DNA of 62,576 bases, filler included, from Asterionella formosa (taxonomy: Eukaryota), in the NCBI GenBank assembly GCA_002256025.1. It is 25 parts of 25 records of this genome, joined end to end, with 100 filler letters (N's around TTAATTAATTAA, not from the genome) between each part and the next. Parts side by side here need not be neighbours in the genome. Positions count along the whole stretch, not along the records: positions 17,599 to 20,011 come from NKIB01015300.1; positions 20,112 to 22,520 come from NKIB01015302.1; 23 more parts are not named here. One strand, given 5' to 3'. Positions 2,974-33,738 of the stretch are shown here, piece after piece. Below the pieces are notes generated by a model that saw only the letters and a list, made by a program, of their open reading frames with translations, did not search any database and was not told where the DNA came from. The first letter of the stretch is position 1. Each line of letters opens with the position of its first letter. A program made the translations under genes and the position numbers.

Positions 2974-4932
2974 GTTTTTTTTTTTTTTTTTTGGCTGTTC
3001 CAAGGCGCCAGGAGAAAACCTATCCGGCCGCTTTGCCCGCCTGCCCCATCGTTGTGGGGTGCTTGGGGGGCATCATGGGAGGATTCGAACTCCTCCCACC
3101 AGTTCACGTGTTCAGGAATGTGTTTGAGGCACCCCGTCATCCAATCATGTCCCAGTGTCCGGTGAGGCACCCCGCCCCTCTCACCTGGGCGAGGTAGTGT
3201 GAGACTTTCACTCACTAAAAACCTGTGTGCAGCCCCAGTCTTGACCAGTACGCGGTCTGCCCTACCCGTCGGGGCGTTGGCCCGTGGAGGTGTGTGGGAC
3301 CCCGTCAAATGCCTCACTTGCGTAAGACCCCCAACGGGACCTGATTATGTTAGCACGAAGGCTAACAACGCTCATCAGGAACCTGGCAAGGGTGGTGGCC
3401 CCTGCCGGGTTCCGTTCCATCTGGCTACCGTCCCCATCGGATGATGAGCTGTCAACCGAAGAGTCACAGTTTTGCTGTGCTGTGACTCCGGTTGGTTCAC
3501 CCATCATCCATCCATGTACCCAGCGGTTCTCACAACTCCCTCCGAGGAGCCATGCCAACCGTTGTTGGTCAAAACCGAGGGCGAAATTCGGCCCTAACGT
3601 CCGAACTTTCGCGATCAATTCTGCCATGTGTGGCTCGGTGCGTAGACCACGCCACCGACCACACGTGAACACTAAGTGTTCCAGCGTTTCTGGTTCCTCC
3701 ATACCACAAAATGGACACTTCCTCAAATACCTATGAGGCATTCGCTTCCACCCCACCAAGTTGGGGACAGTTACAAATGCCCCAATCCGACATCGAACTA
3801 TCAAAGCCAGTCCTGCTTGGTCGTTGGGACTGCCCCCCACACGTGACCGTGTGAGTGGATGCTTGTCAAATCCGGCTCCCTCATACCACACTGTGCGGGC
3901 CCCCGACGGACGAGTCAAGTTCCGTCGGATCCCACACTCTCTCTCCAAGATGCATGCTTTCACTACCTCAGCCAGTACCTTTGGTTCCAGGCTCTGCCAT
4001 CCAGCACCCAAGTACCTCTCCACAATAGATACCGGTGCATGGGGGAGCGCATAGCGTTTCAGCCAGCGCGGAACCCCTGAGCACCATGTCCATTTCTGAC
4101 TTCGGAATGGTCTTAGGACCAATTCCTGAAGCCAGGTTTTGAGACCCGAGGCCTTGGCATAAGCTCTGGCCCGTCGGGCACCCGCCAAGGCACACATTGG
4201 CAACATCCGTGCCTCCTTCCAAAGGCCTACTGATGGCACATCACCTGCCCTCCTGGCTCCAATGCTAGCCCTAAGGCATCGGTTCAGAAGAACCTGCATT
4301 TTGTCCGTAAGTTGACGGTTCATACCATACAGCTCAGCCCCAAAAAGGAGGCGGGGGGCAACTACTCCTGCAACAGTCAGCAAACGCATGGCCATTGGTA
4401 CCACCGGGCACCGTAGAAACGGTACCAAGGTGGCAACTGTGGCCCGCCCTTGCTTGACTCTATGGTCCACCATAGACGAGATAGACAGACCTGGTGTCAT
4501 GAGGACACCCAGATACATATATCTGTCCACAACAGGGAGTGGAAGTCCCTCCAGTTCCAGTCCAACCACATCTTGTCCAGGGACAAGCGGTTCGGTGGCC
4601 GAACCTGGGTCTGGCGGTAGGAATTCCATCAGCCCGCACTTCCCTATGCCCACACTCATCTCGTTAGCTGTAACCCAGTTGGTAACGTGCGTACAGAACC
4701 GTTTGGCCGCCTCCAGAGAGGGACAGATTCCGGCCGCATCATCAGCAAAGAGGGTACATCCTACTGTCAGTGTGGGTGTGGAGTTCCGCCATGTGCGACT
4801 GTCCCCAGTTGGTACCAGGGCACCGCTCTCCTCCGTCCCCACTGCCAAGTCATCAATGAAGATGTTGAACAGTATAGGCGAAAGAGGGCAACCCTGCCGC
4901 ACACCTCGCAACAGTCTGCAGGGGTCCGAGTA
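2974..4932 (-). mobile_element. Non-LTR retrotransposon (LINE), 3' part with GC-rich 3' UTR and poly(A) tail
   Basis: RT ORF ends at 3262, followed by an ~270-nt UTR and an A-tract (T-run at ~2974-2992 on +). A second near-identical copy lies at 31405-32552. Confidence 0.9.
3262..4932 (-). CDS. LINE reverse transcriptase (partial; 5' end off contig) with C-terminal zinc-finger (zf-RVT-like)
   Basis: RGVRQGCPLSPILFNIFIDDL, LFADDAAG, KCGLM, YMYLGV, CPFCGMEEPETLEHLVFTC. Confidence 0.95.
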   Translation of the reverse strand, partial: YSDPCRLLRGVRQGCPLSPILFNIFIDDLAVGTEESGALVPTGDSRTWRNSTPTLTVGCTLFADDAAGICPSLEAAKRFCTHVTNWVTANEMSVGIGKCGLMEFLPPDPGSATEPLVPGQDVVGLELEGLPLPVVDRYMYLGVLMTPGLSISSMVDHRVKQGRATVATLVPFLRCPVVPMAMRLLTVAGVVAPRLLFGAELYGMNRQLTDKMQVLLNRCLRASIGARRAGDVPSVGLWKEARMLPMCALAGARRARAYAKASGLKTWLQELVLRPFRSQKWTWCSGVPRWLKRYALPHAPVSIVERYLGAGWQSLEPKVLAEVVKACILERECGIRRNLTRPSGARTVWYEGAGFDKHPLTRSRVGGSPNDQAGLALIVRCRIGAFVTVPNLVGWKRMPHRYLRKCPFCGMEEPETLEHLVFTCGRWRGLRTEPHMAELIAKVRTLGPNFALGFDQQRLAWLLGGSCENRWVHGWMMGEPTGVTAQQNCDSSVDSSSSDGDGSQMERNPAGATTLARFLMSVVSLRANIIRSRWGSYASEAFDGVPHTSTGQRPDG

Positions 4933-11400: not shown

Positions 11401-11871
11401 TTTAAACCTCTGATGTCGTATCAGCGCATCTCATTTTCAAAAAGTCCTCCATTCATGCTCAAAACTGGTACCAGGGTCACCTTGTCAGAATGTGTCTGTT
11501 GGGCTGTTGATGTCGACTTGTGTCCATGGACTAGATCTAGTATGTCTAAACGGAAATAGACAGTATTTTAATCAGAATAATAAGCAAACGATGCAGCGGC
11601 ATGAGCACGATCTGGACCGCTCATTCCAGCGCAGGACTGGAGCAAGCTGGAGGAAGCGCCATACATACCGGTACATTTCAAACACCAGGTACCAGGTACT
11701 GAAAACCTGGTACGGTACCATCAGGGAGGCAGAGAGGAGGTGGCGATGGCGCACGACAATTAACTACCGGCACTTGCAGTTGGAAATAACCACATGGTAC
11801 CAGGTACATGGAAAACCTCATACAGTGAGTACACTAAAGATATATCGGTACAAGCAAGGTACCACTTAAAA

Positions 11872-12574: not shown

Positions 12575-13992
12575 TGTTGATGGAGCCAAGGCCATTGCAG
12601 AGGCTCTCAAGGTCAATACTGTCTTGACTAAACTTGATCTCGATTATAATTCAATTGGTAATAATTTACTAAATGATATTCAAAAACTGGTTCAAAACAA
12701 GAACCGCAAACCAACAGCAGCCAACACAACTGATTTCATTTCTGAAGGTCGATCGAAAATGAAGGAAGCTATGGACAATGTGGATTCAAGACCAATCGAG
12801 CTTCCTAAGGAATTCATTATTAGTTGTACAAACAACTTTGCTGACGAGAAAAAACTTGGTCATGGTTCTTTTGGTGCTGTCTATGAAGGTGTGGATGATA
12901 ACCGTTTTTTTGCTGTGAAATGTCTTCGTTTCAATTTAGCTTTTTTGGACGATCAGAAAAAAGGAATTAGTAGGAGTTTTAAAAAAGAATTGGAGGTAAG
13001 TTCATCCGTAGTATCATCTATTGCATGTTGTTTCAAGTCTATTATGTTTCTCATTATTCCATATCATACTGTTTCAGGTATTAAAGAGGTTCCGACACCC
13101 TCATATTGTAATTTTGTATGGCTATCATTTGTCCGATGTTTCATCTGATCAACCCATGGTATCTGATCAATACTTGGTGTATGAGTTATTATCCAATGGG
13201 TCACTTGAATCATTCTATAAGAGTGAAAAAAACAGATCAATTCTTACAAGTAATATCCGACTTCGAATCATGAACGAAATTATTTCTGCCATCGACTTCC
13301 TTCATGCTATAAAAACGGATGGCCACACTCTGTTTCATCGTGACATCAAGTCATCTAATATCTGCCTTGATCAGAACTATACTGCCAAGCTGATTGATTG
13401 TGGCTTAGCCAAGTTTGTGCCTAAGGGTAGCTCAGTAATAACCAATCCAATTCCTTCCTCAGTTTGTTACACAGCAGGTGATGGACAATATGGTACACGT
13501 GGCTACATGTGTCCATATCATCTTCAGGGTGGAATATTTGAAGCATCATGTGATGTTTACTCATTTGGAATTGTCATGATTGAGCTTGTGACAGGCTGCC
13601 TCCAAAATGATGGGGAAAAGTTGGGACAGTTCTCTGAACACTACTTACCACATGATTATGAAAGAGCTCCAGCAGAGGTAGTGAAGGAGGCAATTCCAAA
13701 ATTGGAAAAGGATGTTGATCCTCTTGCAGATGAATGGGAAGATGGAATTCTGTCTTCTGTTTGTGAACTAGCCATTCATTGTATTCAGAACAATCGCACA
13801 AAGAGACCAACAACTAATGAATTGGTTGAAGAGTTGAAAAAACTTGTAGGGCCAACAGATCATAATGGGGGATGTGAATCGCCACAAATGATAAATCGCT
13901 CGAAGAGGCCAAAGATTAATCATAATAGGGGATCTGAATCGTCACCAATGAGAATTGCCTTTGACAATCATAACCTGAATGATAGCACTTAA
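12575..13992 (+). CDS. RI-like LRR + Pelle/IRAK-like (TKL) protein kinase, 5'-partial, intron 12996-13077
   Basis: VDGAKAIAEALKVNTVLTKLDLDYNSIG; GHGSFGAVYEG, FAVK, ELE|VLKRFRHP across an 82-nt GT-AG intron; HRDIKSSN, DCG, GTRGY, DVYSFG. Confidence 0.9.
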
Positions 13993-15087: not shown

Positions 15088-15214
15088 ACATTTCCATAGA
15101 AATCTTCAATCTTTGATCTCGTTAGACAGCTGATTGACATGGCAATGCAATATTCGACTCGTTCGATTACAATCGAGTCCACAATCCTTGTGACTCGGGC
15201 TAATATTCTTGACA
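15088..15214 (-). mobile_element. LTR start (TGTCAAGAATA...), family A
   Basis: Exact reverse complement of 17372-17498; the same sequence continues in 42679-42905. Confidence 0.75.
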
Positions 15215-15644
15215 TACAGCAACCATAGGGGGGTCCAGGAAAATGAAAATGAAGTATACGGGGGGGTATCTACTATCACAGTCAGTGTTTCACTCTTGTA
15301 CTCACCGATCCGCTCTAACAAGCGTAACACACTGAGCAGACGGTGGGCTGAAAAAGAAAGTCGAAAGTTCCTGTTGCGAGCCTGAATTGAGTAACGGCAG
15401 ACATACATGTAGCTATGTACTCGGTACCTAGCTTGATTCCTGATGACGCATGCGGCCGTAAACAAGGAATTTAGCTTAGTTTTACTTAAAGAAGAAACCG
15501 TCTTATACCACCGCAACTCCCAAGTATCATGTGATCTCTTCAAAGTTGAATTGATAAAAAGCCAAAAGGGCGAGAATTTTCAGCTCGTTCATTGACGGAA
15601 CGACTCAGTAAGAGGACTAATAAGTGTCGGGTACACAATCGATA

Positions 15645-16193
15645 ATGACGCGAATTGCGATTTTCCGTCGGCTTCTGATGCTCCTGTTGAGCGTTCCGAA
15701 TCCCTGTGCTGCAGATATATTTGTTGAACCCACAAGGCAAATGTTGCGATCAAACGTACGAAAGACAACGGAGTTAGCGACCGGTACGAAGACTTCAGTC
15801 GGTAAACCTTCAGATTCATATTTTAGTCTCCAAGCCCAATTCAACAAACATGCGTACATTAGGTATGGCGCCAAACAAGATTTCTATTCCGATGGCAAGA
15901 AATATGATACCAAAATCTCTGAAAGGGAGCAATTACAGGATTCCAACAATGGTGACGTGCATCGCACGGCCTACTCCAGCGACGACAATGCGCAAAATGT
16001 GGAAACCTATTGGGGTAATCAATTCTTGGCAATGTTTGAAACGGCACCTCATTATTGGGCGCCTATGCAGTGGTTTTTCTTCGCAATGTTCGTGATGCTT
16101 TCGTCGGCAATTAGTTTTTGTTTCTGCATTTTATGCATCATTCCTAGGTGTTGTGGTAAGACAGGGACCATAATTTATGCTTCCATGCTCTGA
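15645..16193 (+). CDS. Small membrane protein: signal peptide, P-x-x-W-x-x-x-QW motif, C-terminal TM helix, Cys-rich tail
   Basis: MTRIAIFRRLLMLLLSVPNPCAA...MFETAPHYWAPMQWFFFAMFVMLSSAISFCFCILCIIPRCCG. Confidence 0.75.
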   Translation: MTRIAIFRRLLMLLLSVPNPCAADIFVEPTRQMLRSNVRKTTELATGTKTSVGKPSDSYFSLQAQFNKHAYIRYGAKQDFYSDGKKYDTKISEREQLQDSNNGDVHRTAYSSDDNAQNVETYWGNQFLAMFETAPHYWAPMQWFFFAMFVMLSSAISFCFCILCIIPRCCGKTGTIIYASML

Positions 16194-17371
16194 AGATGTG
16201 GTTAAGATCGGAAATTTTCAAGGATAAGGAGCTTCAGTCTACAGCAGCATGCGTAGATCATAGGCAGGGAAGGAGAAGTTATCTTTCCCGTGTTGTAAAG
16301 AAGAGCTATGAATTGATGATCTCAATCTTATCAATCACCCCTCTCAACCATTTGAAAAGCTGTGCATTTCTGAGCAATGGGAATAAATAGATTTCTAGCT
16401 TAGATTAGGCTATCAGATAGAGGATCTGGTATAAATTCTTGCAGACTATATTGGCAAAAGTGTGTAACAATATTCTAAAATCATTTTCATCATTTTGAAA
16501 TTTTGATATCATTTCTGGTTTCCCCTCATAATTGACATATTGAATCACTTTTTAGCATTCCCTTATGGACTGGAAGTGGTATTGATGATACCATTTTCGA
16601 CCCCTTTTCCATAGTTGTGTCAGTGATATGCTTTCAAGTACAAATCCATTTTCATAATGAACATGCCAGCAGGACACTAATTTGAACAACAACTATGATT
16701 TTTCTCAAGTTTTTTTGTGAAGCAAAGCACCAAATAAGCATCAATTATTGAATTATTGTATAATGAACAACCACTGGCTTTCCTCTTTCTTGTCCACAAA
16801 CAAAGCACTGCTAAACTAATCAAAGATTTGATTTTTGACACCCACTGCTAACTACCAGCCAACTTTGAGCTTGATATCAATGAGGAGCTGCACTTGCTTG
16901 ATATCAAATATTATTGATTGAAATAAAAATGTCAATCATTGTATACTACGCACGCTGCTGTTCTTCAGTAGCCCTAAGCGGTGGGGTTGACCTGATTTCG
17001 ATCCCAGGACATCAACAAATGCTCCCTTCAATTGAAAAATGAATCTAATTTGATTCCAGTCCTTCTTGAATAGTTAAACAATCAAACTACCAATAACGAA
17101 TCCCTTTTGCAGCACTTGTGACCCAAAACTGTAATTAATACTAATTGAATCTTTTAATGTAGTATTGATCAAGAATTTGACATTGTGGAGGCTGTGAAGT
17201 CACACTTGGCCCCCTATTATCTGCCTCTCCATTTGAAAACCAGCAAATTTCTAAGGACAAATAAAGTAATAATATTTTTTTATTCAGTCGCATGTAGCTG
17301 TGTTTTCATGGATATTCATGTATCTCTTTATTTATCATACCATGCATCAAAGATTGCTACCTGTAGACCAG

Positions 17372-17498
17372 TGTCAAGAATATTAGCCCGAGTCACAAGG
17401 ATTGTGGACTCGATTGTAATCGAACGAGTCGAATATTGCATTGCCATGTCAATCAGCTGTCTAACGAGATCAAAGATTGAAGATTTCTATGGAAATGT
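17372..17498 (+). mobile_element. LTR start, family A (second copy, inverted relative to the one at 15088)
   Basis: Begins TGTCAAG; no polypurine tract upstream, so it is a 5' or solo LTR. Confidence 0.75.
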
Positions 17499-19144
17499 NN
17501 NNNNNNNNNNNNNNNNNNNNNNNNNNNNNNNNNNNNNNNNNNTTAATTAATTAANNNNNNNNNNNNNNNNNNNNNNNNNNNNNNNNNNNNNNNNNNNNTA
17601 TTTTCAACAGCTGCATTGAATTGACATAAATACATTCCAAGTGCAAAGATTAGACAAATAACCATTGGATTGGGATAAGCAGGCCTTGAGAATCTTGACT
17701 GGTCACCTTTTAAATATTTATCCTCAAAAGTGCTTGTTTTTGGTCATCACAACGGCCATTGCAATGGCCATCACTTACCTTCTCTTATCTTTGTTCCTTA
17801 ATGTGATCTTGTGGATTGCTTGTTCACTGCTGGTTCAAGAATTGGAACTATGAGATGATGGTTCCTTGAGGGCACTCATTCCAATTTAGTTTTGAGCGAT
17901 TTTAACATTGGTTGTCAAGGCAAGGCAAAGCAAAGCAAACATTTTGAAATTACAAAGCAAAATGCACAGGACATTTGGTCTGAGAAGGAGGAATGAACCA
18001 TGACAAGTTTGATGAACCTCAAAACTGCCAAGGAAGATAGTTAATGCTAGAATATAATTAATAACATACATTAGTAAGTGGAAAGGATTAATAAGTTCAA
18101 TTATATCGCAGCATTATGAATCATATGTGGTTGAGAACAAGTATGTTCATTGCTTTGGTCCATCTTTCTTTGTCTACTTCGCAACAATTATATTAAAGTA
18201 TGTATGGCCGTTGGTTGAGACCAAAATGCAATGCATTCAAGATTTAGTTGCCTTTCTTTTTTCCTTCCTCCAAAGATGTTTACAAACAGAAATTATAGTG
18301 GTACATCAAATATGTTGAGCCCACTCAATTTCAGAAATGAATTTGCGTGGGTACATGTTCCTGTTTCAACAAACAATAAAGGAGGACCCACATTCCCCAT
18401 AACATCAATCTTGTATCCTTGATTGATGCAAGGCATTCTCTTGTCACCACGAAAATCAATCCTCTCAATTCCAAGACTCTCCTATCAATTGCATCATTTT
18501 AAATTACTTCGAAATGGATCAAATCCTTCTTGTACTTGTCGTTGAAACCTGTAGATATCTTTCTCCTTTCCTTGTTTTTTGGTTGAAACTTGTAGACAGA
18601 ATTCACCACAGCAAGCTTTTGGCAATTCTGACAAATCGCCTCTTCATGTTCAGACATGGGCATTGGATTTATGCTGACGGGCAAGGATTACCTTCAGTGC
18701 CTTGCTTGTTAGTATTGTTACCATTTGTCATGTTTCTTTCTATTCGTTCTCCCTTCGTCACTTAAATCAATTGCAAGTTTCCAACAAGCTCATGGAACAT
18801 GGAACGAATGGTACTACCTGTCACCAAGAACATCTGAGACTCAATGAGGATGGCATTGCTGGTCGATCATAGTTATAGCAAGGAGTTGATGGTGAAGATC
18901 AAACAATGACAAACAGAGGTATCATCCTCATGGTGAGTGTAGCAATCAAGTGTGAGGCTGTGGCTCCTCAGTGTATGTGGCTTGTATTTGTCAAGAGATT
19001 CATGATGGTTTATTATTAACAAGTGGTATGTTCATTCATATATTTAATGAAGAGGAAATGAACGACATCAACTTGGACGACTCTACTTTTATGTATTCAA
19101 AACAAATATTGGGCTGTGCTAAAATTTACAAATGTAGAACCAGC

Positions 19145-19770
19145 TACCGGTACTGGTACAATGGGCCGTTGTGTACCTGATGTACTTTGGGGGGGCCACC
19201 AAGCCATAATTTGGATCGAAGTGCTTTATCCTACCGGTAGGTACATGGTATGGTATGGTACCAGGTACAACAGGGGCCCTATCGTGGCTACACTACATAC
19301 TTAATTATTAAAGCGTACAAGGTACCAGGGTACCTTGTACATATTCCGCCGTGCCAGCTGTCCCGGTGCTCGAGACTTCCTCAAGTACTACGAAGCTCCG
19401 AAGTATGGTACTGGTACCAAAGTACCGGTACCTGTTACATACTCCGTACCAGGGACGTGGTTCCGATTGTTGTTACCATATACCGGTTACTCCGTATATC
19501 CTACCAAGATTCCTGTAAGTGCTTAATTCCCGTGAGTACTGGTCCCTCTACAGCTAGTTAAATACATACCGGTACCTTCAGCATGTCACTAAAACACTAC
19601 CTGTCGTAGTAGTCGTACAGTACATTTATGGACGTGGACACGAAACATAACATCAACAATTCTAGAGACGAGACCTGACTGTTCCTACATGCATACCGGT
19701 AGTTTAATTAAATAGATTGCTATTTCCAATCGAATACAGTATAGTACCTGGTACCATACCACCTGGTAGC
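19145..19770. repeat. Cluster of TA-CC(W)GG-TA / TA-TGG-TA / TA-CCA-TA motifs (one of many such clusters)
   Basis: For example taccggta at 19232, ta-tgg-ta-tgg-ta-ccagg-ta at 19249-19267, ta-cctgg-ta-cca-ta at 19746-19759. Confidence 0.85.
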
Positions 19771-20311
19771 CATCAGCTCAAGACTTCTGGGAGGGAACAT
19801 AACAGCTGTTTGTATTATGCAAATAATAGTGCAAGCATCTGCAGCATGGTGGACTTTGTAGAGTACGCTGGGTAACCACCCCAGCCAATTATTTTGCAGC
19901 AGATAATTCCAAGTGAGTAATCGCAATGTCATTAACTAAACAAAGTTTAACTATTTACTATAGCTCGCCGAGGTGGGTTTGTTTCTACATACACACTTAA
20001 AGAGTAATGCCNNNNNNNNNNNNNNNNNNNNNNNNNNNNNNNNNNNNNNNNNNNNTTAATTAATTAANNNNNNNNNNNNNNNNNNNNNNNNNNNNNNNNN
20101 NNNNNNNNNNNTGCATCGCGCGTCAACTGAGCCTTGATCTTGCCGGGAGGAAAAAGCTGAAACCAATCTACCACTGCCGAAGCTGCTGCCCGTTTATTCG
20201 CCATGTGGTATCAACGAACAAAACATGTGGGGTATGGGTGACAGAATGCCTGATACCAGCATCATACTAAATTGACTGTGGTGGTATCATGATGTAGACA
20301 GATAATGTGCG

Positions 20312-20356
20312 TACCTGGTACCTGGTACCTGGTACCAGTGCCAGGTACCAGGTACC
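20312..20356. repeat. (TACCTGG)n/(TACCAGG)n heptamer array
   Basis: tacctggtacctggtacctggtaccagtgccaggtaccaggtacc. Confidence 0.9.
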
Positions 20357-20779
20357 ACCGGTCGGTATTTGATTTGTCCACAAAACCCTACGTTTAGTAG
20401 TACAGAACCATTACTACCGGTATGAATACAATATACAGGTACCAACAAGTTGCGGTCATTTGCTTAAATAAACAATTCAATATGGGATAAAGAGCGCTAA
20501 ACTTACAGTTTCAGGACAATTACCGTAACGCACTTACACGTACTACTACCGGTACATACAATCCGGTCACATCAGAACGACCGAAGGGTCCTACCGGTAC
20601 TACAGTATCACATGAAGAATGTCGTGATGGACCTCGTCGTCACGAAGCACATTTCTGATCGCCTTGCTAGTAGGTAGGTATGTTAATCTCGTCGACTCTG
20701 CCATTGTTATACATTAACGTGACACCTATTCATGAAATCAAATTAGCTGTGCCACAATAAAGCAGTCCTCCACGTCAGT

Positions 20780-21826
20780 ATGTGGCACTCGTTTCTAGAC
20801 AAGCAAGATGGGCTGCACCCACAGCTGCCACCCAATACGAGGCCCACTTCGCCAAGCAAGCGAAAGGCGGAGCCAACGATTCTTCCAAGAGCTCCTTCTG
20901 AAAGTCCTTCGTCATTGTCATCATCACGTATTGTTTCCCATGAGCCAGCATTTCTATCTGAATCACCCAGGAGCCCCTGCTCTGCTGTGGCGATTGCCGG
21001 CATGGAAGACGACTGCCCAGATGAGCCAGCCTTGACGGCGGAAGGCTTCGGAGCACTTGTTCAAGTGACAGTGACCGCTGACAAATTTACATCTCCCACC
21101 AAAGTTGACCGGTTTGCATTCGTATCCGCTACGCAAGTCCCTCTCCCCCTGTTGGAAGAACAATCCACTAAACGTCGACATGAATACAACACACGCATAT
21201 TTGAACTAGACTGCAAGGTGGCGTCTCTTCAATCGCAATTGATGAATGAACACATGGACCTGGAGTTTGCCCTGTCGGACCACCTCGCCCGTCACACTTA
21301 TCAACCCCTGGAGCGTTGTATGGAGCGCATGCGGTCGAGATTGATGCTAGAGGACCCTCAATTGAAATCCGTCATGTCTCGTCTCGCTGCACTACAAATC
21401 ACTCATGCCAAGCACATTCATATAGACCTTGCCGATGCCCGAAGAGATCAACGTGACGTGGCCGACATGACGCACCAATTACTACACACCATCCAGTTAG
21501 AATGTCACAAGGCCGACAAGCGGGAAGGGGCCTTGATGCAACGATTTGAAAGAATGGCAGGTACTGTGGCACGACGGTATTATGAAGAATCTAGCGCGAG
21601 GAAGGCGGCATTGGTTTATTTGCAATCTCTTTTGGACAACCAAGGGGAAATGGATCAACAAAGGGCAATGGAGTTTTTGAAAACAATTAAGCAACTTAGG
21701 GAACGATTGAGCGAGGAAAGAAAAGTGCGGAAATTTGATGATGGTGCTGTATTACAGGCTATTGAAGCAAGGACCGCTGAATTGAGAAGAGCATTGCTAG
21801 AAACAGCAGGACGATTCGATGCGTGA
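20780..21826 (+). CDS. Coiled-coil protein, SF-assemblin/beta-giardin-like
   Basis: Intact 348-aa ORF with a Pro/Ser head and a helical rod ending LSEERKVRKFDDGAVLQAIEARTAELRRALL, resembling the SF-assemblin C-terminus (by eye). Confidence 0.65.
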   Translation: MWHSFLDKQDGLHPQLPPNTRPTSPSKRKAEPTILPRAPSESPSSLSSSRIVSHEPAFLSESPRSPCSAVAIAGMEDDCPDEPALTAEGFGALVQVTVTADKFTSPTKVDRFAFVSATQVPLPLLEEQSTKRRHEYNTRIFELDCKVASLQSQLMNEHMDLEFALSDHLARHTYQPLERCMERMRSRLMLEDPQLKSVMSRLAALQITHAKHIHIDLADARRDQRDVADMTHQLLHTIQLECHKADKREGALMQRFERMAGTVARRYYEESSARKAALVYLQSLLDNQGEMDQQRAMEFLKTIKQLRERLSEERKVRKFDDGAVLQAIEARTAELRRALLETAGRFDA

Positions 21827-22281
21827 CGATGTATGAAGAACTTCGAAAAAGCCAATTTTAGACAGATGCCGCTTGCTCCGAAACAGAAAAAGACACGTGA
21901 ACAATAAGCAAGCAGCAACATGATTTACATGAATAAATAGTATTTTCAGGGATTAACGACGGTAGCCTGGTAAAGAGATCATCAATCAGATACGTGTGTT
22001 TCAAGGTGAGACTATCAATCGCCTATCTCTGGGAACCTGTACGAAAGCGCTTTATGTATAGGTCACTGATGGAACAGGGAGCTGCAGAAAGGTGCTATAG
22101 TCTTCACAAAGTAGAGACTATATATAAGGTCTACTAAACCAAAAGATTAATGTTAAAACAAATAAAAACACTTCAGTAAATGAGGCTCCTTGTTGTACTG
22201 ATCACAAAAGTGGCCCTTAGTTGTCAATGGGTTCCTCTTTGCCTCATTCATAAGTTGTTGTAGTGATCACAAAAGCGACAA

Positions 22282-22520
22282 TTAGTTGTCAATGGGTTCC
22301 TCTTTGCCTCCTCCGTAAGGGGTATCTTTTTCATTATTTTCCTTGAAGAAAAATGATTTGATGGCACCATTTGACAGACGAACAATGCAGACAACAATAA
22401 ACATAGCCGACGTCACAAACCATGCGAGCCACCAAGGCAATGCTGTAGCAACGATCGCAGTTGTAGAAAGGAAAAGAAGAAATTGAAGGGGTCCTCCCAT
22501 GCATAAAAAATCCTTTGCAG
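22282..22520 (-). CDS. 3' end of a membrane protein (partial)
   Basis: Frame open from the contig end with two hydrophobic segments; the stop region is locally duplicated (22200-22246 vs 22266-22310). Confidence 0.45.
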
Positions 22521-22620: not shown

Positions 22621-24700
22621 TTTTACATGACCATCACTCTGGTAAGTACAACAAAGTTCACTTCTACATATTGATATCAAAAGACAAACAACAGGTACTG
22701 ATACATTCATTCTCATAACAGTTTCCATCTATATGACTATGTCCAGCCCTAGAAGGGCTGGATGCTCTTTAGGGAAGACGCCTAGAGGCATCTACCCTTT
22801 TCCCTGTCCCTGACCCTAACAGATTTGTCTATGGATCAGTACACACGTGAAATTGGTTAGTACCTGGGGTTTGGTACCAGGACATCTGTTTAGTCACATG
22901 CATGGAGTAATATTGGCCGTATTGGTACGTGGTACCTTGTTGTTCTATCCAGTAGCATGTCCAAAAAAATCTCCGAGGTAAAGTGTAGTCAAGACAGTAT
23001 TGGTCTTGAGAGCCTTGGCTCCGTCAACACCAATTGAATTCTCATAGAGATAAAGTGTAGTCAAGACAGTATTGACCTTGAGAGCCTCTGCAATGGCCTT
23101 GGCTCCGTCATCACCAATTGAATTACTACTGAGATTAAGTTCAGTCAAGACAGTATTGACCTTGAGAGCCTTTGCAATGGCCTTGGCTCCATCATTACCA
23201 ATTGAATTAGCTCGGAGATGAAGTTTAGTCAAGACAGTATTGACCTTGAGAGCCTCTGCAATGGCCTTGGCTCCGTCATCACCAAATGAATCAACTCTGC
23301 GACTAAGACCAAGTGTAACAATTTTAGTCAAACTTGAATCATTCGCTTTCAACCGCTTGACATATTTTTCCCATGTATCATCCCAGTTAGGCATTGTCAA
23401 TATAGTCTTGAATGTAATGGAAGTTGTCTATTGTGATTGACGAGCGACTTTTTTCTTGTTGTTGTCGTCCAATATTGCTACTGTCACTACTTCCAGGAGC
23501 AAGGGACAATCAAATCCTGATTCATCATCAGAATCGGACGACCATGACACTGAGTTGGATCCATGTAGTGACGAGTGAAAGCTATTTCTGACTTGAAGGA
23601 GGCAACCTCATTTATTAGACAAGACTAAGCTATGTTTGCATGGCTGGTCACCGTGATCTTGGTCTCGCTGCTGCTCAAGTGCTTGCATGCTTGATGGATT
23701 CTGGAAAGAACCTTTGTTGGGATCATTGAATCTAACTTATCACAAGAAAGGAACCTCGATTATCGAATGGCCTGATGTGAGAAGCGGCCTAACAAATCAT
23801 CGTCAATGACCACATTGAAACCACACAAATACGACTATTCATATGTAGTCTGCATACCGGTATTCGCCTGTGCTGTGTTGTACCTCTTCATCACCACGGG
23901 CATATGTTGTTCCCTACCGGTATTATAAAATTACGTGGTGTGAGGTAACAGGGTGGCGCCAGTCCCTGGTATCAGGTACAAGATACCCAGAACACCCATG
24001 GATCTACTGGTACGCCCAGGTACCAGTTGTACGTGGAGCACCGTCTGAAATAATATATACAAGGTATGTACTGCACTCCTTGCCATCATGAACAACAGCC
24101 GTGAGGAATGGTTGAGCTGGATGGGAGTTCCGGGAAAGTCCGAATACTATTGCGAACATTTGTCCACACATGCACACTGCTGTATGTAACATAAACCATA
24201 CAAAACTGTTAGGGTTGCAAATATACCGGTTGACTACGTACGTATCGGTACATCGGTACCATACAGGTAGACTCCCGGTAATAAATGTATACAACAAAGA
24301 TATGTGTACAAAGTAGCATACACAGTAGCCGGTATGTAGTTGAACTATACTACAATCACAAATCAAAATTGCATGCAGTTACTACTAATACTGCATGCAT
24401 GCATCCTCATAAGAATACTGATATTTACCAGGCACAGTACATGGGAGTCGACATCAAAAACAATGTGCCCACGGAATTGCAAAACCAAACCAAAAAGAAA
24501 TAGCGAATATTTCCACTCCACCAGGTCATTCAGGACGCACCCGCGAATGCGAATTATATATATATATATATTACATGCATAACATTATAATAATTTGTAA
24601 CATTTTTACATGACCATCACTCTGGTAAGTACAAAACAGTGCCCTTCTACATATTCATATCAAAAAACAAACAACCGGTACTTACACATTCATTCTCATA
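22621..24700. repeat. Diverged 97-bp direct repeat (22621-22717 and 24604-24700), probably transposon 3' region copies
   Basis: ttttacatgaccatcactctggtaagtacaa...cattcattctcata occurs twice. Confidence 0.8.
22945..23394 (-). CDS. RI-like (NLRC3-like) LRR protein with four 28-aa/84-bp repeats; the last repeat is broken, so it may be truncated or a pseudogene
   Basis: RLKANDSSLT cap, then DDGAKAIAEALKVNTVLTxLxLxxNSIG repeats; same DNA unit as 12575-12660. Confidence 0.8.
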   Translation of the reverse strand: MPNWDDTWEKYVKRLKANDSSLTKIVTLGLSRRVDSFGDDGAKAIAEALKVNTVLTKLHLRANSIGNDGAKAIAKALKVNTVLTELNLSSNSIGDDGAKAIAEALKVNTVLTTLYLYENSIGVDGAKALKTNTVLTTLYLGDFFGHATG

Positions 24701-25027: not shown

Positions 25028-25522
25028 TNNNNNNNNNNNNNNNNNNNNNNNNNNNNNNNNNNNNNNNNNNNNTTAATTAATTAANNNNNNNNNNNNNNNN
25101 NNNNNNNNNNNNNNNNNNNNNNNNNNNNTATCTAAATGCTAGTATGGCTTGTCAGCTCACGCATTGTTGTTGATAACAGGCAGGGACAATGAGGTCCGGA
25201 ATGAAAGTTGTTCTGGTAAGATTACCGCGCTATTTTGACGGCTATATGAGCAACGTTACTGATAACTCACACTGATCTTCCTCTACATTCAATTGACGTT
25301 GCAGCAAACCCTTTCAATTCAGGAGCATTTGGATGAAATCCAGGATTGAGTATTGATGCTTTCTGATTCTGTGTTAATGTCATATGATAACAGGGCTCTG
25401 TAAATCATGAGTTGTTTGTGTGCCTTGGCGTGCTGTTTGTCATGCTGGCAGCTGCTGCTGTATTTCTACTGAATTATTGAACGACTATGCGAATCTTTAT
25501 GTGCCAGTTGTTCAATAATTCA

Positions 25523-27536
25523 TTATAAATACAGCAGGGAGTAGTAAATTTGTTGTTGTGGTGGTGTTGCCGGTGGAGGATGAAAATATGGCTGCTGATA
25601 GGAATAAACAACATTGTTTGGTGGGGGAGGGGGGCCGGGATGGTAGATTGCATGTTGTGCAGGAGGCGGCAGACCAGAACTGTATATGTGTTGAGGAGTT
25701 TGAAGCAGATGGTGGGAGTAGTAGTGGATGGGAGCTCCTGGAGGATGAGCATGAGGAGTTGGGTTGGTAGAGGAGGGCAACAAAACAACTTTACAATCAA
25801 CAATAGGATCGTCAATGGGAATGGAAATTTCAGCCGATTTCTTGACATCAGGAGGAACAACTGCAAGGTCGGAAGAATATTTCTCGGGAGTTTCATGCTG
25901 GTCCTCATTGTCTTCAAATTTTTTAAAAACTGCTAGCGTTGCTTGATGCTGCATTTCCTTTGATGGCAGCTGGTATCTGGCATTGATTTCAGCTGATCCA
26001 TGCCTGGATTTGTCGAGAATTATTTTTGTAGGTAAGGAAACACTAGAGTTGACAAGGGAAGAGATCATACTCTTCCTCCTCCCATGGGCAGTGCAACGAG
26101 CAGCATTATCCATGCCCGCAGCTGTTGCTAGGTCGACACATAGTCTTGTAGCATAGCCTTTACCAAAACAGTCTCACTTCTTGTGTCCTGCCTTGTATGT
26201 TAGCCCTAGCTTGCGTCGGTTCTTAGTGATGGATATACGAGGAGCCATGTAGAAAAAGACGCACATGAGTTAGTCCATAGTATGCACAACAAATCACCAG
26301 TACAAATTTGGCACCAGGCATAATGAATCACCGGTGTTTCCAAGGGATTACACACATAATTTACATACCTTGAGTTCCTTCTCAGGAGCGCGTCGCCGAA
26401 AAAACGGTTGGTTGCTAGTTACCATCTCGGGCGAACAGAGGTTATCCCGGTAGTGATGTATTAATTTCACTATGAATGTAGGGTTGCCTGTATCCTCGAT
26501 CATAGTTCGTTCCTGTAGACCTTGGTACTTCCGCTCATTATTTTGCAACGTCAGGGCATTATTTTTTTCGACTTCACTTGGATGTAGCACGACAGTTCGT
26601 AATCCGTCCATCAAACCAACTGTCACCTTATTGAATGTCAAGTCGCACATTTCTATCGACCCTCTGACACCAAACGCTTTGCCCATTTTCCATACCATGG
26701 ACTTGAGGCAATCATCATAATTAAGCTAAGGCTGCATTTGGAGTGTTCGTAGCTTCCTGTCCTCGTCTTGATCGAACTGTGATGCCATGGGCTTGTGGCC
26801 ATATTCCAATGGCCGGTGCTTGGCAGCAATTGCCATATTTTTTGAAAAGAATGCTTGAATCTCACCCTCACCATTGAAATCCTTCGACAGGGAATATGGT
26901 ATGCCTTGGGGGGAGAAGCATCGGAAGAGATCTTTCAGCTTGGTTTGGGCGGTGTTCGGTTGGTACATTGCCGTTGCAATGGCTTCGTCAGAAGCACTTT
27001 CGAGAATGAGGGGCGATTTTTTCTTGAAGAATTTGGTTGCAAACCAAAGTACAGCAGTGTTGTTGATTTCCTTGGTGGCGTTGCGTCTTAGCCCACGACA
27101 GATTAGACAGAATCGACGGATTGGTTGGTTGCCATTGTCAGGATCATTGTCGAAAGAAGTAAGCGAGCTCAAGGTTTCATTCTCGACAAGGGATTCAAAA
27201 AACCTTGATTCAATGATGGTAAGTGACTTGGTGTATTTGATTGTGTTATGCGACAGGTTTCTAATAGAATTTGTTTGTTTTGTTGACCCGAAAACATTAT
27301 TGCTGGATCGAATTGCATTGGCATAGTCTTCAGCAGTTGAGTGAGACATTGGAATCCGGGAGTCAGCACGATGAGCATGAGGAGCAATGATGGAAGCAGG
27401 TAACAAGTGCCTTGAATCGGAATCAGATGTGCTAGTAGTACTGTTGCAATCATCCTCAGAATCATGACAATCAACAGAGCTGGGTCTATCAATGTCAGAA
27501 TTGGGTGTTTCTACAACATTGGATGAGTTCACAACT
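25523..27536 (-). pseudogene. Crypton-like tyrosine recombinase (DUF3504-like), copy 1; intron 26222-26368; nonsense codons at 26726 and 26174
   Basis: Catalytic pattern R (FGVRGSIE), HxxR (TAHGRRK), H (SRHGS), Y (NARYQ); splicing joins APEKELK|NRRKLG in frame. Confidence 0.85.
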
Positions 27537-27643
27537 NNNNNNNNNNNNNNNNNNNNNNNNNNNNNNNNNNNNNNNNNNNNTTAATTAATTAANNNNNNNN
27601 NNNNNNNNNNNNNNNNNNNNNNNNNNNNNNNNNNNNTTCTACA

Positions 27644-30044
27644 ATGACAACGGGAACTAGAAGCCGTCGTTTCTCTCAAAGAGCAGTGACAAATACTGCT
27701 AAGCGCAAAGTGCAAGATGATAACCGGCGTGCTGCATTGGCAATGTGTGCACTAGAAAGGAAATGCAAGACGATAACCGGCGTGCTGCATTGGCAATGTG
27801 TGCACTAGAAAGGAAAAAGAAGCTTGGGTATGTTGTTGATTGGTGTGTGCTTCCGCCCATGCTGGCTGACCGAATTGTCGATTTCATCCTAACATACTCT
27901 TCAATTCATTACATTCTTCAGCTTATTGGAACGGAATGAGGTTGTTGCAAATGCTGCAAGTATTCCCAAAGCAGCCATTGATTGGAACGAAGAAATAGAA
28001 AGGTGCGTTTGTTGTTGATTGTTGCATAATTTTGCTTCCATTTTGATTCATCTATCATTGATGATGCGATCACTCACAGTCGCATTGTTTCCTTTCCGGT
28101 CATTGTCAGCTTTAAAGAACCTTCTAAAAGCAATGTTTCTACAGTTGTGAACTCATCCAATGTTGTAGAAACATCCAATTCTGAGATTGATAGACCCAGC
28201 TCTGTTGATTGTCGTGAATCTGATAATTGCAACAGTACTACTAGCACATCTGATTCCGATTCAAGGTACTTGTTACCTGCTTCCATCATTGCTCCTCATG
28301 CTCATCGTGCTGATTCCCGGATTCCAATGTCTCACTCAACTGCTGAAGACTATGCCAATGCAATTCGATCCAGCAATAATGTTTTCGGATCAACAAAACA
28401 AACAAATTTTATTAGAAACCTGTCGCATAACACAATCAAATACACCAAGTCACTTACCATCATTGAATCAAGGTTTTTTGAATCCCTTGTCGAGAATGAA
28501 ACCTTGAGCTCGCTTGCTTCTTTCGACAATGATCCTGACAATGGCAACCAACCAATCCGTCGATTCTATCTAATCTGTCGTGGGCTAAGACGCAACGCCA
28601 CCAAAGACATCATCAACACTGCTGTACTTTGGTTTGCAACCAAATTCTTCAAGATAAAATCGCCCCTCATTCTCGAAAGTGCTTCTGACGAAGCCATTGC
28701 AACGGCAATGTACCAACCGAACACCGCCCAAACCAAGCTGAAAGACCTCTTCCGATGCTTCTCCCGCCAAGGCATACCATATTCCCTGTCGAAGGATTTC
28801 AATGGTGAGGGTGAGATTCAAGCATTCTTTAAAAAAAATATGGCAATTGCTGCCAAGCACCGGCCATTGGAATATGGCCACAAGCCCATGGCGTCACAGT
28901 TCGATCAAGACGAGGACAGGAAGCTACGAACACTCCAAATGTAGCCTTACCTTAATTATGATGATTGCCTCAAGTCCATGGTATGGAAAATGGGCAAAGC
29001 GTTTGGTGTCAGAGGGTCGATAGAAATGTGCGACTTGACATTCAATAAGGTGACAGTTGGTTTGATGGACGGATTACGAACTGACGTGCTACATGCAAGT
29101 GAAGTCGAAAAAATAATGCCCTGACGTTGCAAAATACTGAGCGGAAGTACCAAGGTCTACAGGAACGAACTATGATCGAGGATACAGGCAACCCTACATG
29201 CATAGTGAAATTAATACATCACTACCGGGATAACCTCTGTTCGCCCGAGATGGTAACTAGCAACCAACCGTTTCTTCGGTGACGCGCTCCTGAGAAGGAA
29301 CTCAAGGTATGTAAATTATGTGTGTAATCCCTTGTACACACCGGTGATTCATTATACCTGGTGCCAAATTTGTACTGGTGATTTGTTGTGCATACTATGG
29401 ACTAACTCATGTGCGTCTTTTTCTACATGGCTCCTCGTATATCTATCACTAAGAACCGACGCAAGCTAGGGCTAACATACGAGGCAGGACACAAGAAGGG
29501 AGACTGTTTTGGTAAAGGCTATGCTACAAGACTATGTGTCGACCTAGCAACAGCTGCAGGCATGGATAATGCTGCTCATTGCACTGCCCATGGGAGGAGG
29601 AAGAGTATAATCTCTTCCCTTGTCAACTCTTGTGTTTCCTTACCTACAAAAATAATTCTCGACAAATCCAGGCATGGATCAGCTGAAATCAATGCCAGAT
29701 ACCAGCTGCCATCAAAGGAAATGCAGCATCAAGCAAGGCTAGCAGTTTTTGAAAAATTTGAAGACATTGAGGACCAGCATAAAACTCCCGAGAAATATTC
29801 TTCTGACCTTGCAGTTGTTCCTCCTGATGTCAAGAAATCGGCTGAAATTTCCATTCCCAATGACGATCCTATTGTTGATTGTAAAGTTGTTTTGTTGCCC
29901 TCCTCTACCAACCCAAATCCTCATGCTCATCCTCCAGGAGCTCCCATCCACTACTACTCCCACCATCTGCTTCAAACTCCTCAACACATATACAGTTCTG
30001 GTCCGCCGCCTCCTGCACAACATGCAATCTACCATCCCGGCCCC
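27644..30044 (+). pseudogene. Crypton-like tyrosine recombinase, copy 2; introns 27828-27921, 28003-28079, 29307-29453
   Basis: ATG at 27644; GT-AG introns restore the frame. Lesions differ from copy 1: 53-bp duplication 27711-27816, stop at 28942, frameshift near 29110, stop near 29280. Confidence 0.85.
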
Positions 30045-30754
30045 NNNNNNNNNNNNNNNNNNNNNNNNNNNNNNNNNNNNNNNNNNNNTTAATTAATTAA
30101 NNNNNNNNNNNNNNNNNNNNNNNNNNNNNNNNNNNNNNNNNNNNCAAAATCCTACAGTGTAGTTGTTGTGATCATCTGGAGCATCCTGCATCATGTCGTC
30201 TCAACCTTGACCATGACGAAAATAGCGGAAATCTCTAGGAAAATTGAGAACGACGCTCTCCTGTTAGGAACATATATCAATCACAACAAAGGCAATACAA
30301 CCGTAAGAGAATAGTTGCAATGGCATTGATAGTAACAGCGAAAACTGCAATCGCCGATGGCACAATTTTTCTACATAATCTATAGCTGCTCAAATCAAAA
30401 CGACGCTGTTGCGAACAGATTTGACATTTTTGCAGTTGCTGAGCAATGAACGACTATAACAATAACATGATTAGTTGAAGCAAAAAATTGTTAAAATAGT
30501 TATTCATCAAATAAGAAAGATTGATTGTACCAACGGCATTTGTGGATGCGGATATCGGCGCCAACAACTGCTTGTGCTGTTTGTTCTTTGGCAGTCGATA
30601 TCAAGGGAAAATGTGATAGAGGAAAAAATAATAATTGAATCGAAATTAGGTACTCTTTACTTAATCATGTGGTGAGACCAGCATAATATTGCCGTGAAGT
30701 GGCGTAATTTCACCATTATACCGTTATGAGGGCTAGTTGGAAAAAAATATTGTT

Positions 30755-30938
30755 GCGAACTCACATAATTATTGGTTTGATCACATAATTATTAGATAAG
30801 TAGAATAAATTTTGTTTTAGAACACATAAATTTTAGTTTGACCCAAATAAATTCACAAAAAAGTAGCATAATATTTTAGAAAAGTAGAATAAAAACGTCA
30901 CTTTAGACATAAATTTGAAAAAGTGCCGCAAACGGCGT
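30755..30938. mobile_element. Putative non-autonomous DNA element end (Harbinger-like, TTA flank) with a degenerate ~21-bp internal array, interrupting a Copia LTR
   Basis: Periodic cacataa/gaataaa units ending in gtgccgcaaacggcgtc|tta. Confidence 0.4.
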
Positions 30939-30944
30939 CTTAGC

Positions 30945-31407
30945 TAGATGTGACCTTCTTGTTCCATAGAATTCCTCACCATGACTGTTGGTCATGCAGA
31001 CTGTGCAGTCATTACAGTACTAGATATACTACTGTCTGCTAACAGTAGTCGATTATCCTCAACATCCTCCCTCCAACATTCAAGATTCCCAATTCTTATC
31101 CTTGCTGCATGCTCTGTGTGCAACTTCTCTGGACAGTTCTTGCTTAGTATGTCAGCTGAGTTCTCTTCCCATCGTACAAACAGAACCATCAAATATCCTT
31201 GAACTACAAGTTCTCGGATAAAATGTGCCCTGATATCAATATGCTTTGTCCGTGCACCCACATGTTGGTTCTTTACCAAATAGATAGCTCCTAAATTGTC
31301 TTTGTATACACCCTCTACCAATTTCTTCTCTTTTTGAAATTGCATCACTTCTTCAAGTAGAATGGATGTGAACTTGTTCTCGCATGCTCCTTTTGCCAAA
31401 CTGATAT
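30945..31407 (-). mobile_element. Ty1/Copia RNase H C-terminus, polypurine tract (31074-31065) and start of the 3' LTR (TGTTGAGG at 31064)
   Basis: DNLGAIYLVKN...RTKHIDIRAHFIRE...NSADILSKN...WREDV; GGAGGGAGGA directly before TG. Confidence 0.9.
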
Positions 31408-32552
31408 GAGGCGTTCGCTTCCACCCCACCAAGGTGGGGACAGTTACAAATGCCCCAATCCGACACCGAACTATCAAAGCCAGTCCTGCTTGGCCGTTGG
31501 GACTGCCCCCCACACGTGACCGTGTGAGTGGATGCTTGTCAAATCCGGCTCCCTCATACCACACTGTGCGGGCCCCCGACGGACGAGTCAAGTTCCGTCG
31601 GATCCCACACTCTCTCTCTCAAAAATGCATGCTTTCACTACCTCAGCCAGTACCTTTGGTTCCAGGCTCTGCCATCCAGCACCCAAGTACCTCTCCACAA
31701 TAGATACCGGTGCATGGGGGAGCGCATAGCGTTTCAGCCAGCGCGGAACCCCCGAGCACCATGTCCATTTCTGACTTCGGAATGGTCTTAGGACCAATTC
31801 CTGAAGCCAGGTTTTGAGACCTAAGGCCTTGGCATAAGCTCTGGCCCGTCGGGCACCCGCCAAGGCACACATTGGCAACATCCGTGCCTCCTTCCAAAGG
31901 CCTACTGATGGCACATCCCCTGCCCTCCTGGCTCCAATGCTAGCCCTAAGGCATCGGTTCAGAAGAACCTGCATTTTGTCCGTAAGGTGACGGTTCATAC
32001 CAAACAGCTCAGCCCCAAAAAGGAGGCGGGGGGCAACTACTCCTGCAACAGTCAGCAAACGCATGGCCATTGGTACCACCGGGCACCGTAGAAACGGTAC
32101 CAAGGTGGCAATTGTGGCCCGCCCTTGCTTGACTCTATGGTCCACCATAGACGAGATAGACAGACCTGGTGTCATGAGGACACCCAGATACATATATCTG
32201 TCCACAACAGGGAGTGGAAGTCCCTCCAGTTCCAGTCCAGCCACATCTTGTCCAGGGACAAGCGGTTCGGTGGCCGAACCTGGGTCTGGCGGTAGGAATT
32301 CCATCAGCCCGCACTTCCCTATGCCCACACTCATCTCGTTAGCTGTAACCCAGTTGGTAACGTGCGTACAGAACCGTTTGGCCGCCTCCAGGGAGGGGCA
32401 GATTCCGGCCGCATCATCAGCAAAGAGGGTACATCCCACTGTCAGTGTGGGTGTGGAGTTCCGCCATGTGCGACTGTCCCCAGTTGGTACCAGGGCACCG
32501 CTCTCCTCCGTCCCCACTGCCAAGTCATCAATGAAGATGTTGAACAGTATAG
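31405..32552 (-). mobile_element. Second copy of the LINE RT, 3'-truncated, frameshift near 31615
   Basis: Near-identical to 3732-4877 with scattered substitutions. Confidence 0.95.
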
Positions 32553-32652: not shown

Positions 32653-33738
32653 CGCTGGAGTCGGTACAGCAACAGGAACTGGCGCTGGTGCCGACGTTGG
32701 CATAACAACAGGGGTCGGTGCAGGAGTTTTAGGTTTGAAACGATCACAGACGTAATTTCCGTTTTTGCAGACACAGGTCCTTGTACCGTTTTTCCCGTTT
32801 CTAGTTAGATCGTATAAGCATGTGCGGTTACCGGCACAGGGGATTACCTCGTTCCGTTTCGGGGGATTCGGAGGACAAGTGAAAGGATTGTTGCAGACAA
32901 ATGATGAGTCTTTGCAGACACAGGTTATTGTCGCGTTTAATCCGCGTCTGGTTATAGGGTATAAACACCTGAGGTCACCGTCACATGAGATTGTTTGGGT
33001 CTTTTTCGGACGGTTGGGAGGGCAAAGGTTTGTGATAGGACTTGAAGTTGGTCCGGAAGGAGCAGATGGAATAGGTGGTGCAACGGTAATGGGTACCACG
33101 GTTGGTGCGACAACCGGAACTGGTCCTGGAGTTGGAGCAACAACCGGAACTGGTGCTGGAGTTGGAGCAACAACCGGAACTGGTGCTGGAGTTGGAGCAA
33201 CAACCGGAACTGGTGCTGGAGTTGGAGCAACAACCGGAACTGGTGCTGGAGTTAGAGAAGAATACACTGGGCTCATAGCTGGACTGTCGACAGGACTTGG
33301 TGGAGGAGTCGAAATTCCTGGTGGTGAGGCAAGGAGCGGTGCTGGAGTTGGATCAACAACAGGAACTGGTGCTGGAGTTGGAACGGTAACAGGAGTTGGT
33401 GCTGGAACAATAGCAGGAGTTGGTGCAAGAGACCAAGTATCAGCGGGGCTCATAGCTGGACTGTCAACAGGAGTTGGTGGAGGAGTCGAAATTCCTTGTG
33501 GTGAGACTAGGAGTGGTGCTGGAGTTGGAACCATACCTGGAACTGGCGCTGGAGTTGGAAACATATCGGGAGTTGGTGCAGGCGTGGGAACATCAGCCGG
33601 AGTGGGTGCCGAGGTCAAAGGCACAACGGGAGCAGAAGTTGTCATAACAACGGGAATCGGCCAAGGACTAGCCTCTGCCAGGGCACCGCTGGTGACAAGG
33701 CAGAGCCCCACGGCGATTTCGGTGATGCAAAACTTCAT
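32653..33738 (-). CDS. Secreted Pro/Thr/Val-rich (mucin/extensin-like) protein with two 6-Cys modules, 3'-partial
   Basis: Signal peptide MKFCITEIAVGLCLVTSGALA; PVPVVAPTPA repeats (30-bp tandem ~33105-33252); CP..P.....C....C.Y.........C.C.....C twice. Confidence 0.85.

Follow-up and report, generated by a model that had tools for sequence, protein, structure and literature searches.

What writes the short palindromic words that stud the DNA between genes in the diatom Asterionella formosa? The question is raised by positions 19145-20600 of a 62,576-nucleotide stretch of assembly GCA_002256025.1 (hereafter the window), which is made of 25 contigs of ~2.4 kb joined via N44-TTAATTAATTAA-N44 spacers; the locus itself straddles two of them, the tail of contig 17599-20011 and the head of contig 20112-22520. 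Here TACCGGTA, TACCWGGTA and GGTACC recur singly and in chains, and an earlier interpretation (the sequence-only reading) proposed that they are stacked excision footprints of Tc1/mariner transposons. We put the probability that footprints plus local copying explain the words at about 0.4, and no single process accounts for everything.

The words lie where the sequence-only reading had placed them. Positions 19145-19758 hold five copies of TACCGGTA, two of TACCWGGTA and seven of GGTACC, and positions 20312-20599 hold three, four and six respectively. The chain TA-TGG-TA-TGG-TA-CCAGG-TA is likewise found as described, at 19249-19267. Chains of mixed order are indeed present in the window, which has 11 chains with at least two tokens. 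Against a mean of 0.30 and a maximum of 3 in 100 dinucleotide-preserving shuffles of the window, TACCGGTA occurs 28 times; TACCWGGTA occurs 16 times (shuffle mean 0.29, maximum 2), and GGTACC 54 times compared with the 10.0 expected from base composition. The density of TACCGGTA- and TACCWGGTA-type words is 0.7 per kb. The statement that they sit on many independent contigs is literally right, with one or the other word on 13 of 25 contigs, and their rarity in coding DNA holds when open reading frames (ORFs) of at least 150 aa (24,677 bases inside, 35,499 outside) serve as the proxy: TACCGGTA is found once inside such ORFs and 27 times outside, TACCWGGTA twice inside and 14 times outside. A count of all TA-x-TA words against the same shuffles reduces the six-member set originally proposed to three strong members, namely CCGG (28 versus 0.29), CCAGG (9 versus 0.21) and CCTGG (7 versus 0.11). 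TA-CTGG-TA is only modestly raised (CTGG and CAGG each 5 versus 0.8), and two further proposed members are not clearly above chance, TA-CCA-TA with 7 versus 3.7 and TA-TGG-TA with TGG outside the top 45 TA-x-TA words.

The words are extended and nearly free of mutation. Next to GGTACC the first base is A in 36 of 54 cases, followed by G in 31 and G in 33, and the upstream side is the mirror image; of the 45 ACCGGT sites, 34 have a T directly before them and 33 an A directly after. One-mismatch variants of TACCGGTA total 43 against 10.7 expected, and the 28 perfect copies are nearly as numerous. Flanking by TA on both sides is seen for 28 of 145 CCGG and 16 of 115 CCWGG sites in the window. Beyond the words themselves, no cross-matches were found between the window clusters, the DNA between clusters being unrelated, and an exact inverted-repeat search with 11- and 12-base seeds mostly recovered the words.

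Metagenomes extend the sample to a second diatom. Freshwater and lake metagenome runs belonging to 14 studies have contigs that contain contig 17599-20011, and a scan of metagenome contigs with GGTACCWGGTACCWGGTACC returned at least 124 stretches, of which 123 loci were compared further. Loci of 42-47% G+C in this collection, records of 35-55 kb among them, are packed with GTACCWGGTAC between genes. They are from another diatom, whose phosphoglucomutase is 56-61% identical to named diatom proteins, with nothing closer. The second-diatom set comprises 30 such loci (124,787 bp). These loci were selected for holding an array and motif-rich ones were picked, which biases densities upward; the ascertainment pattern explains only ~2 words per locus. 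TACCWGGTA occurs 342 times versus 1.2 in shuffles. The density of 2.7 words per kb in the chosen metagenome loci, biased upward as it is, lies above that of the window. The link to TA is strict: 342 of 575 CCWGG sites (59%) in the second diatom are flanked TA..TA, as are 11 of 37 CTCGAG, 8 of 24 CTCSGAG and 16 of 191 CCGG sites, versus 0-1% for 12 control palindromes (CATG 0 of 504, AGCT 0 of 622, for example).

The centre base of TA-bounded CCNGG in the second diatom is A or T in 342 cases and C or G in 5, and adjoining units carry the same centre 50 times and a different one 47 times (binomial p 0.84). Direct duplication alone would not give this pattern, since neighbouring centres are independent. 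The result bears on a transposon-free explanation that we regard as possible though doubtful, in which self-propagating palindromic low-complexity DNA is copied locally, by slippage and by inverted, templated break repair. TA-centred palindromes such as GGTACC, CTAG, TAGCTA and CCWGG would be copied, hairpin arrays would break often and thereby renew the process, and the A/T centre would merely mark the orientation of the copy. Such copying cannot put one and the same word of 8 to 11 bases into hundreds of sites far from one another, and single units dominate, making up 33 of 38 unit chains in the window, where the DNA between clusters is unrelated, and 180 of 250 in the second diatom. The argument that mixed units speak against pure slippage fits the second diatom, where neighbours are not alike; the long chains of other low-GC loci are homogeneous (see below).

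A resident element supplies a further point that local copying leaves unexplained. Positions 48663-49468 form an 806-bp element with perfect 30-bp terminal inverted repeats beginning CTCCCTCTGTC, with a TA on either side (48661-49470) and ends that read CTCCC...GGGAG. In this one case, the TA occupied by the element belongs to ctGG-TA-CCagg and is part of a motif chain, and only 54 of the 3743 TAs in the window (1.4%) are located in GGTACC. Element ends and the words derived from CTC were searched in 100 low-GC sequences (247,185 bp, window included). No TA-flanked inverted-repeat element with C...G ends other than the 806-bp one was found there; the 806-bp element has one copy in the window and none in the loci, and other TACTCCCTC matches continue differently. 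The same sequences contain a TA-bounded series of CTCGAG (12), CTCGGAG (6), CTCCGAG (5), CTCCGGAG (3) and CTCGGGAG (1), which corresponds to the first 3-4 plus the last 3-5 bases of the element. The last of these lies at 48482-48493 as TA-CTCGGGAG-TA, 168 bases upstream of the element, and joins its first 3 and last 5 bases. In the 125 kb of the second diatom, the centre base of the CTC series is C or G in 8 cases and A or T in none. In two instances a CTC-type unit and a CCWGG unit have one TA in common, and slippage cannot build such mixed chains. The element resembles Stowaway-type MITEs (miniature transposable elements with inverted repeats) and plant-type mariner-like elements in its TA duplication and in inverted ends that start CTCCCTC; Stowaway ends read CTCCCTCC. 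It differs from Stowaway MITEs in being longer than a typical MITE and in lacking many near-identical copies in the sequences searched. Its ends would give CTC/GAG scars, unlike CC(W)GG.

A dispersed word with strict TA flanks, centres in either orientation and a companion series that matches a resident element calls for something that writes a specific sequence, and the best candidate for it is a cut-and-paste transposon. A Tc1/mariner footprint is, according to PMC6943129, 2-4 bases from the start or the end of the element set between two TAs, giving TACAGTA or TACTGTA for Sleeping Beauty, and PMC2642840 has the classical mariner end as TA-CCAGGTGTAC among its oligos. The words are like these footprints in having TA on both sides, an inner part that begins with C and ends with G, a centre that may be either of two complementary letters, and a non-coding location; they differ in an inner part of 4-5 bases and in that no donor element with matching ends was found in the 247 kb. 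Cut-and-paste transposons of the Tc1/mariner kind most likely left most single units as scars where they had occupied a TA. On entry into a TA, an element would duplicate it, and on excision a few end bases would stay between both TAs; insertion in either orientation would make the odd centre base A or T. GG-TA-CC would be a favoured entry site, and each scar would turn one such site into two, so that scars could stack into chains, later reshaped by local copying, whether direct, through slippage, or inverted, through fold-back or templated repair. We infer that an element with CCAGG- or CCGG-type ends gave rise to the CC(W)GG units, and the chains were presumably built by re-entry of elements.

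Several observations, given here and in the following paragraphs beside the alternatives they favour, weigh against this explanation. The proposal of stacked footprints is partly supported, by the TA-bounded form, the independent centres, the CTC series and the element inserted in GGTACC, and lacks an element with CC(W)GG ends. With TA-flanked pairs defined by 20 of 24 complementary end bases, no inverted-repeat element with CCAGG, CCA or CCGG ends was found in the 247 kb; the search returned only the CTCCC element and a pair within a long inverted contig end. The CCAGT-ended elements invoked by the sequence-only reading did not appear as an inverted-repeat pair on any one contig in the same sequences. 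Of 1054 open TA-CC(W)G starts, not one is followed by non-motif DNA that recurs in at least three of the sequences. No transposase domain was detected by Pfam among 158 window ORFs of at least 75 aa, whose matches are to reverse transcriptases, a kinase, leucine-rich repeats (LRRs) and a zinc knuckle. In the window there is no two-end scar TACCATGGTA, and the 125 kb have one; a five-base remnant exceeds the published 2-4 for Tc1/mariner. Simple stacking also does not predict the deficit of CCGG in window chains, where it makes up 3 of 11 chain units versus 25 of 33 single units (Fisher p 0.009); in the second diatom, CCGG is no rarer in chains (7 of 178 units) than among single units (9 of 180), a point in favour of scars.

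Local copying accounts for other parts of the pattern. Tandem arrays of period 5 to 9 occur in the window, and in the other low-GC loci chains of at least four units are homogeneous, with 42 neighbours the same versus 5 different. The array at 20312-20357, (TACCTGG)3-TACC-AGTG-CC-(AGGTACC)2 (period 7, 6.9 copies), is an inverted repeat in which T-type units on the left stand opposite A-type units on the right; as DNA it folds into a hairpin with a 21-bp stem at -22.3 kcal/mol (z -5.7, 0 of 200 shuffles as good). Similarly, A-type units face T-type units at 61905-61942, with a hairpin of -15.1 kcal/mol (z -5.1). Both arrays point to fold-back copying. Words of the G...C type, TA-GC-TA (140 versus 38 in shuffles) and TA-GWC-TA (122 versus 23), are enriched in the second diatom as well, as is TACTAGTA, and the excess of the first two cannot derive from elements with C...G ends.

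Comparisons between copies point the same way in part. BLAST among the 123 loci yielded one useful homologous pair, L049 and L063, other pairs being overlaps of one record. By eye their unique stretches are nearly identical, and BLAST gives 71% identity over 907 columns, 195 of them gap columns. The two loci differ chiefly in their arrays, with spacers replaced, as after repeated breakage, and this counts in favour of scars. One difference is a 25-base duplication comprising an array and a spacer; another sets a 29-base array opposite tctgc|tgc, with no TA in the array-free copy, which speaks for local copying and against a scar at a TA site. In populations, contigs of three DNA runs and one RNA run were placed on contig 17599-20011, only the covered parts being used. 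Two of the six indels listed in 19145-19600 delete whole tokens and leave a single TA, both in tandem context: 6 bases at 19145 (TACCGG) and 11 bases at 19403 (TGG+TA+CTGG+TA). The remaining four are a TAG insertion and one-base changes. The token losses at 19145 and 19403 leave the single TA expected of an empty site and count for scars, the array site of L049/L063 has no TA, and unit-length indels also fit local copying. Aligned paralogous contig pairs of the window show six gap events, none touching a motif word. Three near-identical window pairs, 37667-40072 with 40173-42578 (99.7% identical, reverse complement), 25129-27536 with 27637-30044 (97.4%, reverse complement) and 2517-4932 with 30145-32552 (98.3%), represent either alleles or duplicates of recent origin. 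Whatever seeds the words, local copying acts in addition, as is shown by long arrays of like units, by arrays that form hairpins and by duplicated blocks.

Placement bears on a different explanation, in which selection keeps the words as binding sites of a lineage-specific dimeric protein, be it a general factor acting at promoters or on chromatin, or as targets of defence or methylation. They are perfect 8- to 11-base palindromes, with the high ratio of perfect to one-mismatch TACCGGTA copies given above (28 versus 43), and they lie upstream of genes: the last word of 20415-20599 ends 12 bases before the likely first ATG of an ORF at 20611, an ATG that, like the GTAGGT following a short first exon, is a reading of the sequence and not a gene model. 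The second diatom has 7.1 words per kb in divergent spacers and 5.2 in tandem spacers versus 0.5 in ORFs. A homologue of the window array on contig 20112-22520 also speaks for selection. It is locus L009, and common to both are a (TACCTGG)3 array, one TACCGGTA, one GGTACC and the 21-mer CAAGTTGCGGTCATTT(T)GCTT, although the DNA between these conserved parts is not alignable; neutral scars explain such conservation less well than selection or a shared mobile unit would. Set against this, 13 second-diatom spacers longer than 900 bp hold 151 words and 14 spacers shorter than 850 bp hold 2. Their density in long spacers and near absence from short ones speak against a general part of promoters. 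Overlapping units spaced 7 bases apart would serve poorly as independent sites, and the arrays differ wholesale between the near-identical L049 and L063. Overall, we consider binding sites an unlikely source of the pattern, and the words do not look like a promoter code. Three genes adjoining motif clusters in the second-diatom loci L014, L045 and L061 encode DUF6824 domains; the spacers of these loci are also full of TACTAGTA, TAGCTA and TAGWCTA words, and an ORF of L014 is annotated as endonuclease V in a protein atlas.

The shared mobile unit could instead be a foldback-like transposon whose terminal or subterminal repeats consist of GGTACC(W) units, the words being its worn ends. At 20312-20357 and 61905-61942 two arrays face each other across a short centre, which is the appropriate form, and three loci have the module made up of array, TACCGGTA, GGTACC and CAAGTTGCGGTCATTT(T)GCTT. 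In addition, the summed word depth of 17599-19623 in three lake metagenome runs is 5 to 80x that of 19624-20011, the rest of the contig, where depth is not the same as copy number. The window clusters nevertheless have only the words in common, with no common continuation after them and with most units single, which makes this source very unlikely in our judgement. Some details of these sites may be recorded here. The 21-mer lies at 20446-20466 of the window, at 892-912 of L009 and at 397-417 of L063, 2-3 bases after GGTACC in three unrelated loci, and in L009 its first 12 bases face an inverted copy 90 bp away, in the manner of a very small inverted-repeat element. Many metagenome contigs branch off at 19565, and 17599-19623 is probably repeated DNA.

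Two enzymatic schemes were also considered and set aside. A restriction-like cut with fill-in predicts GGTACGTACC or CCWGGCCWGG, neither of which was noticed in the regions inspected, where no count was made. Biased repair of the very-short-patch type was dropped because the words differ in length.

Known systems resemble the words in part. According to PMC4390886, HIP1 (GCGATCGC) of cyanobacteria is likewise an 8-base palindrome found tens of times over expectation genome-wide. Unlike the diatom words, HIP1 is prokaryotic, also occurs in genes, is neither TA-bounded nor chained, and is linked to methyltransferases. Microsatellites with units of 6-7 bases are alike in their head-to-tail period-7 arrays and unit-length indels. 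The diatom words differ from them in being mostly single, in mixing units and in having neighbours that are not alike in the second diatom, and they do not look like an ordinary microsatellite. Within the portions of the literature that our search covered, no published description of such words in diatoms, or of footprints that are stacked or reach these densities, was found, and the literal motif strings appear only in primers and barcodes, as far as the listings show. Footprints, Stowaway-type elements and iterated palindromes are each known; if the words are not scars, they form an undescribed abundant family.

The two outcomes differ in what they would mean. If the words are scars, a few active elements would have reshaped a large share of diatom non-coding DNA while leaving few copies of themselves, counts of resident transposons would badly understate past activity, and, for an organism in which few genetic tools exist, the chains would directly show which targets were chosen and how the breaks were repaired. 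A stronger form, which we advance tentatively and think rather less likely than not to hold, is that the spacers are a transposase-written record, in which a preference for GG-TA-CC means that each visit leaves CC(W)GG+TA, doubles the site and breeds further visits. In the second diatom such scars would account for most copies of a pentamer (59% of all CCWGG). Such a self-reinforcing scar record would be a route to satellite DNA and long spacers, as well as a log of past jumps. If the words are not scars, a palindrome family of great abundance and with hardly any mutation is present in two or more lineages of diatoms, with consequences for promoter structure, for breaks in assemblies and for the design of markers. 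Under both outcomes, scoring the words is easy in lake metagenomes, many of which contain the organism.

The individual sites are as follows. The cluster at 19145-19758, in the tail of contig 17599-20011, comprises TACCGGTACTGGTA at 19145-19158, TACCGGTA...(TGGTA)3..CCAGGTA at 19232-19267, GGTACCAGGGTACC at 19321-19334, TATGGTACTGGTACC...TACCGGTACC at 19404-19432, TACCGGTACC again at 19567-19576, TACCGGTA at 19694-19701 and TACCTGGTACCATA at 19745-19758. Downstream of the array at 20312-20357, isolated words are spread over 20415-20599, with TACCGGTA at 20415, 20547 and 20592 and GGTACC at 20438. A second dense cluster covers 61905-62155, with GGTACCAGGTACCAGGTACCCTGGTACCTGATACCAGG at 61905-61942, TACCGGTACCGGTA at 61984-61997 and TACCAGGTACCGGTA at 62141-62155. 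Smaller groups lie at 56151-56267 (GGTACCTGGTACCAGGTACC, GTACCGGTAC and TACTGGTACCTGGTACC), at 51380-51687 (TACCGGTAATACCGGTA, GGTACCTGGTACC and TACCGGTA) and at 11666-11863, where TACCGGTAC, GGTACCAGGTAC, GGTACGGTACC, a second GGTACCAGGTAC and GGTACC are separated by unrelated DNA.

The window also contains features apart from the words. Rfam gave no matches in it at gathering scores, and ARAGORN found no tRNA genes. Eleven copies of TAGGGT at 60017-60083, that is, TTAGGG telomere repeats, occupy the extreme end of contig 57690-60083, with a degenerate block ~1.1 kb inward at 58891-58933. Contig 15088-17498 carries a perfect 127-bp inverted repeat at both ends, either a foldback element or an assembly effect, and 100 bases of this repeat (97% identical) open contig 42679-45084 at 42679-42778. 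Tandem repeats are found at 23012-23291 (84-bp unit, 3.3 copies, adjoining an LRR ORF), at 33101-33257 (30-bp unit, 5.2 copies, within an ORF), at 35160-35286 (25-bp unit, 5.1 copies, 100% identical, at a contig start) and at 49589-49678, which is (TGT)30. A PAP_fibrillin ORF lies on the minus strand at 50747-51262; the best among its named relatives come from Synedropsis, Staurosira, Seminavis and Fistulifera, which marks the organism as a diatom. Short metagenome contigs encode many relatives (60-81% identity) of the kinase ORF at 13012-13989, which suggests a large lineage-specific kinase family.

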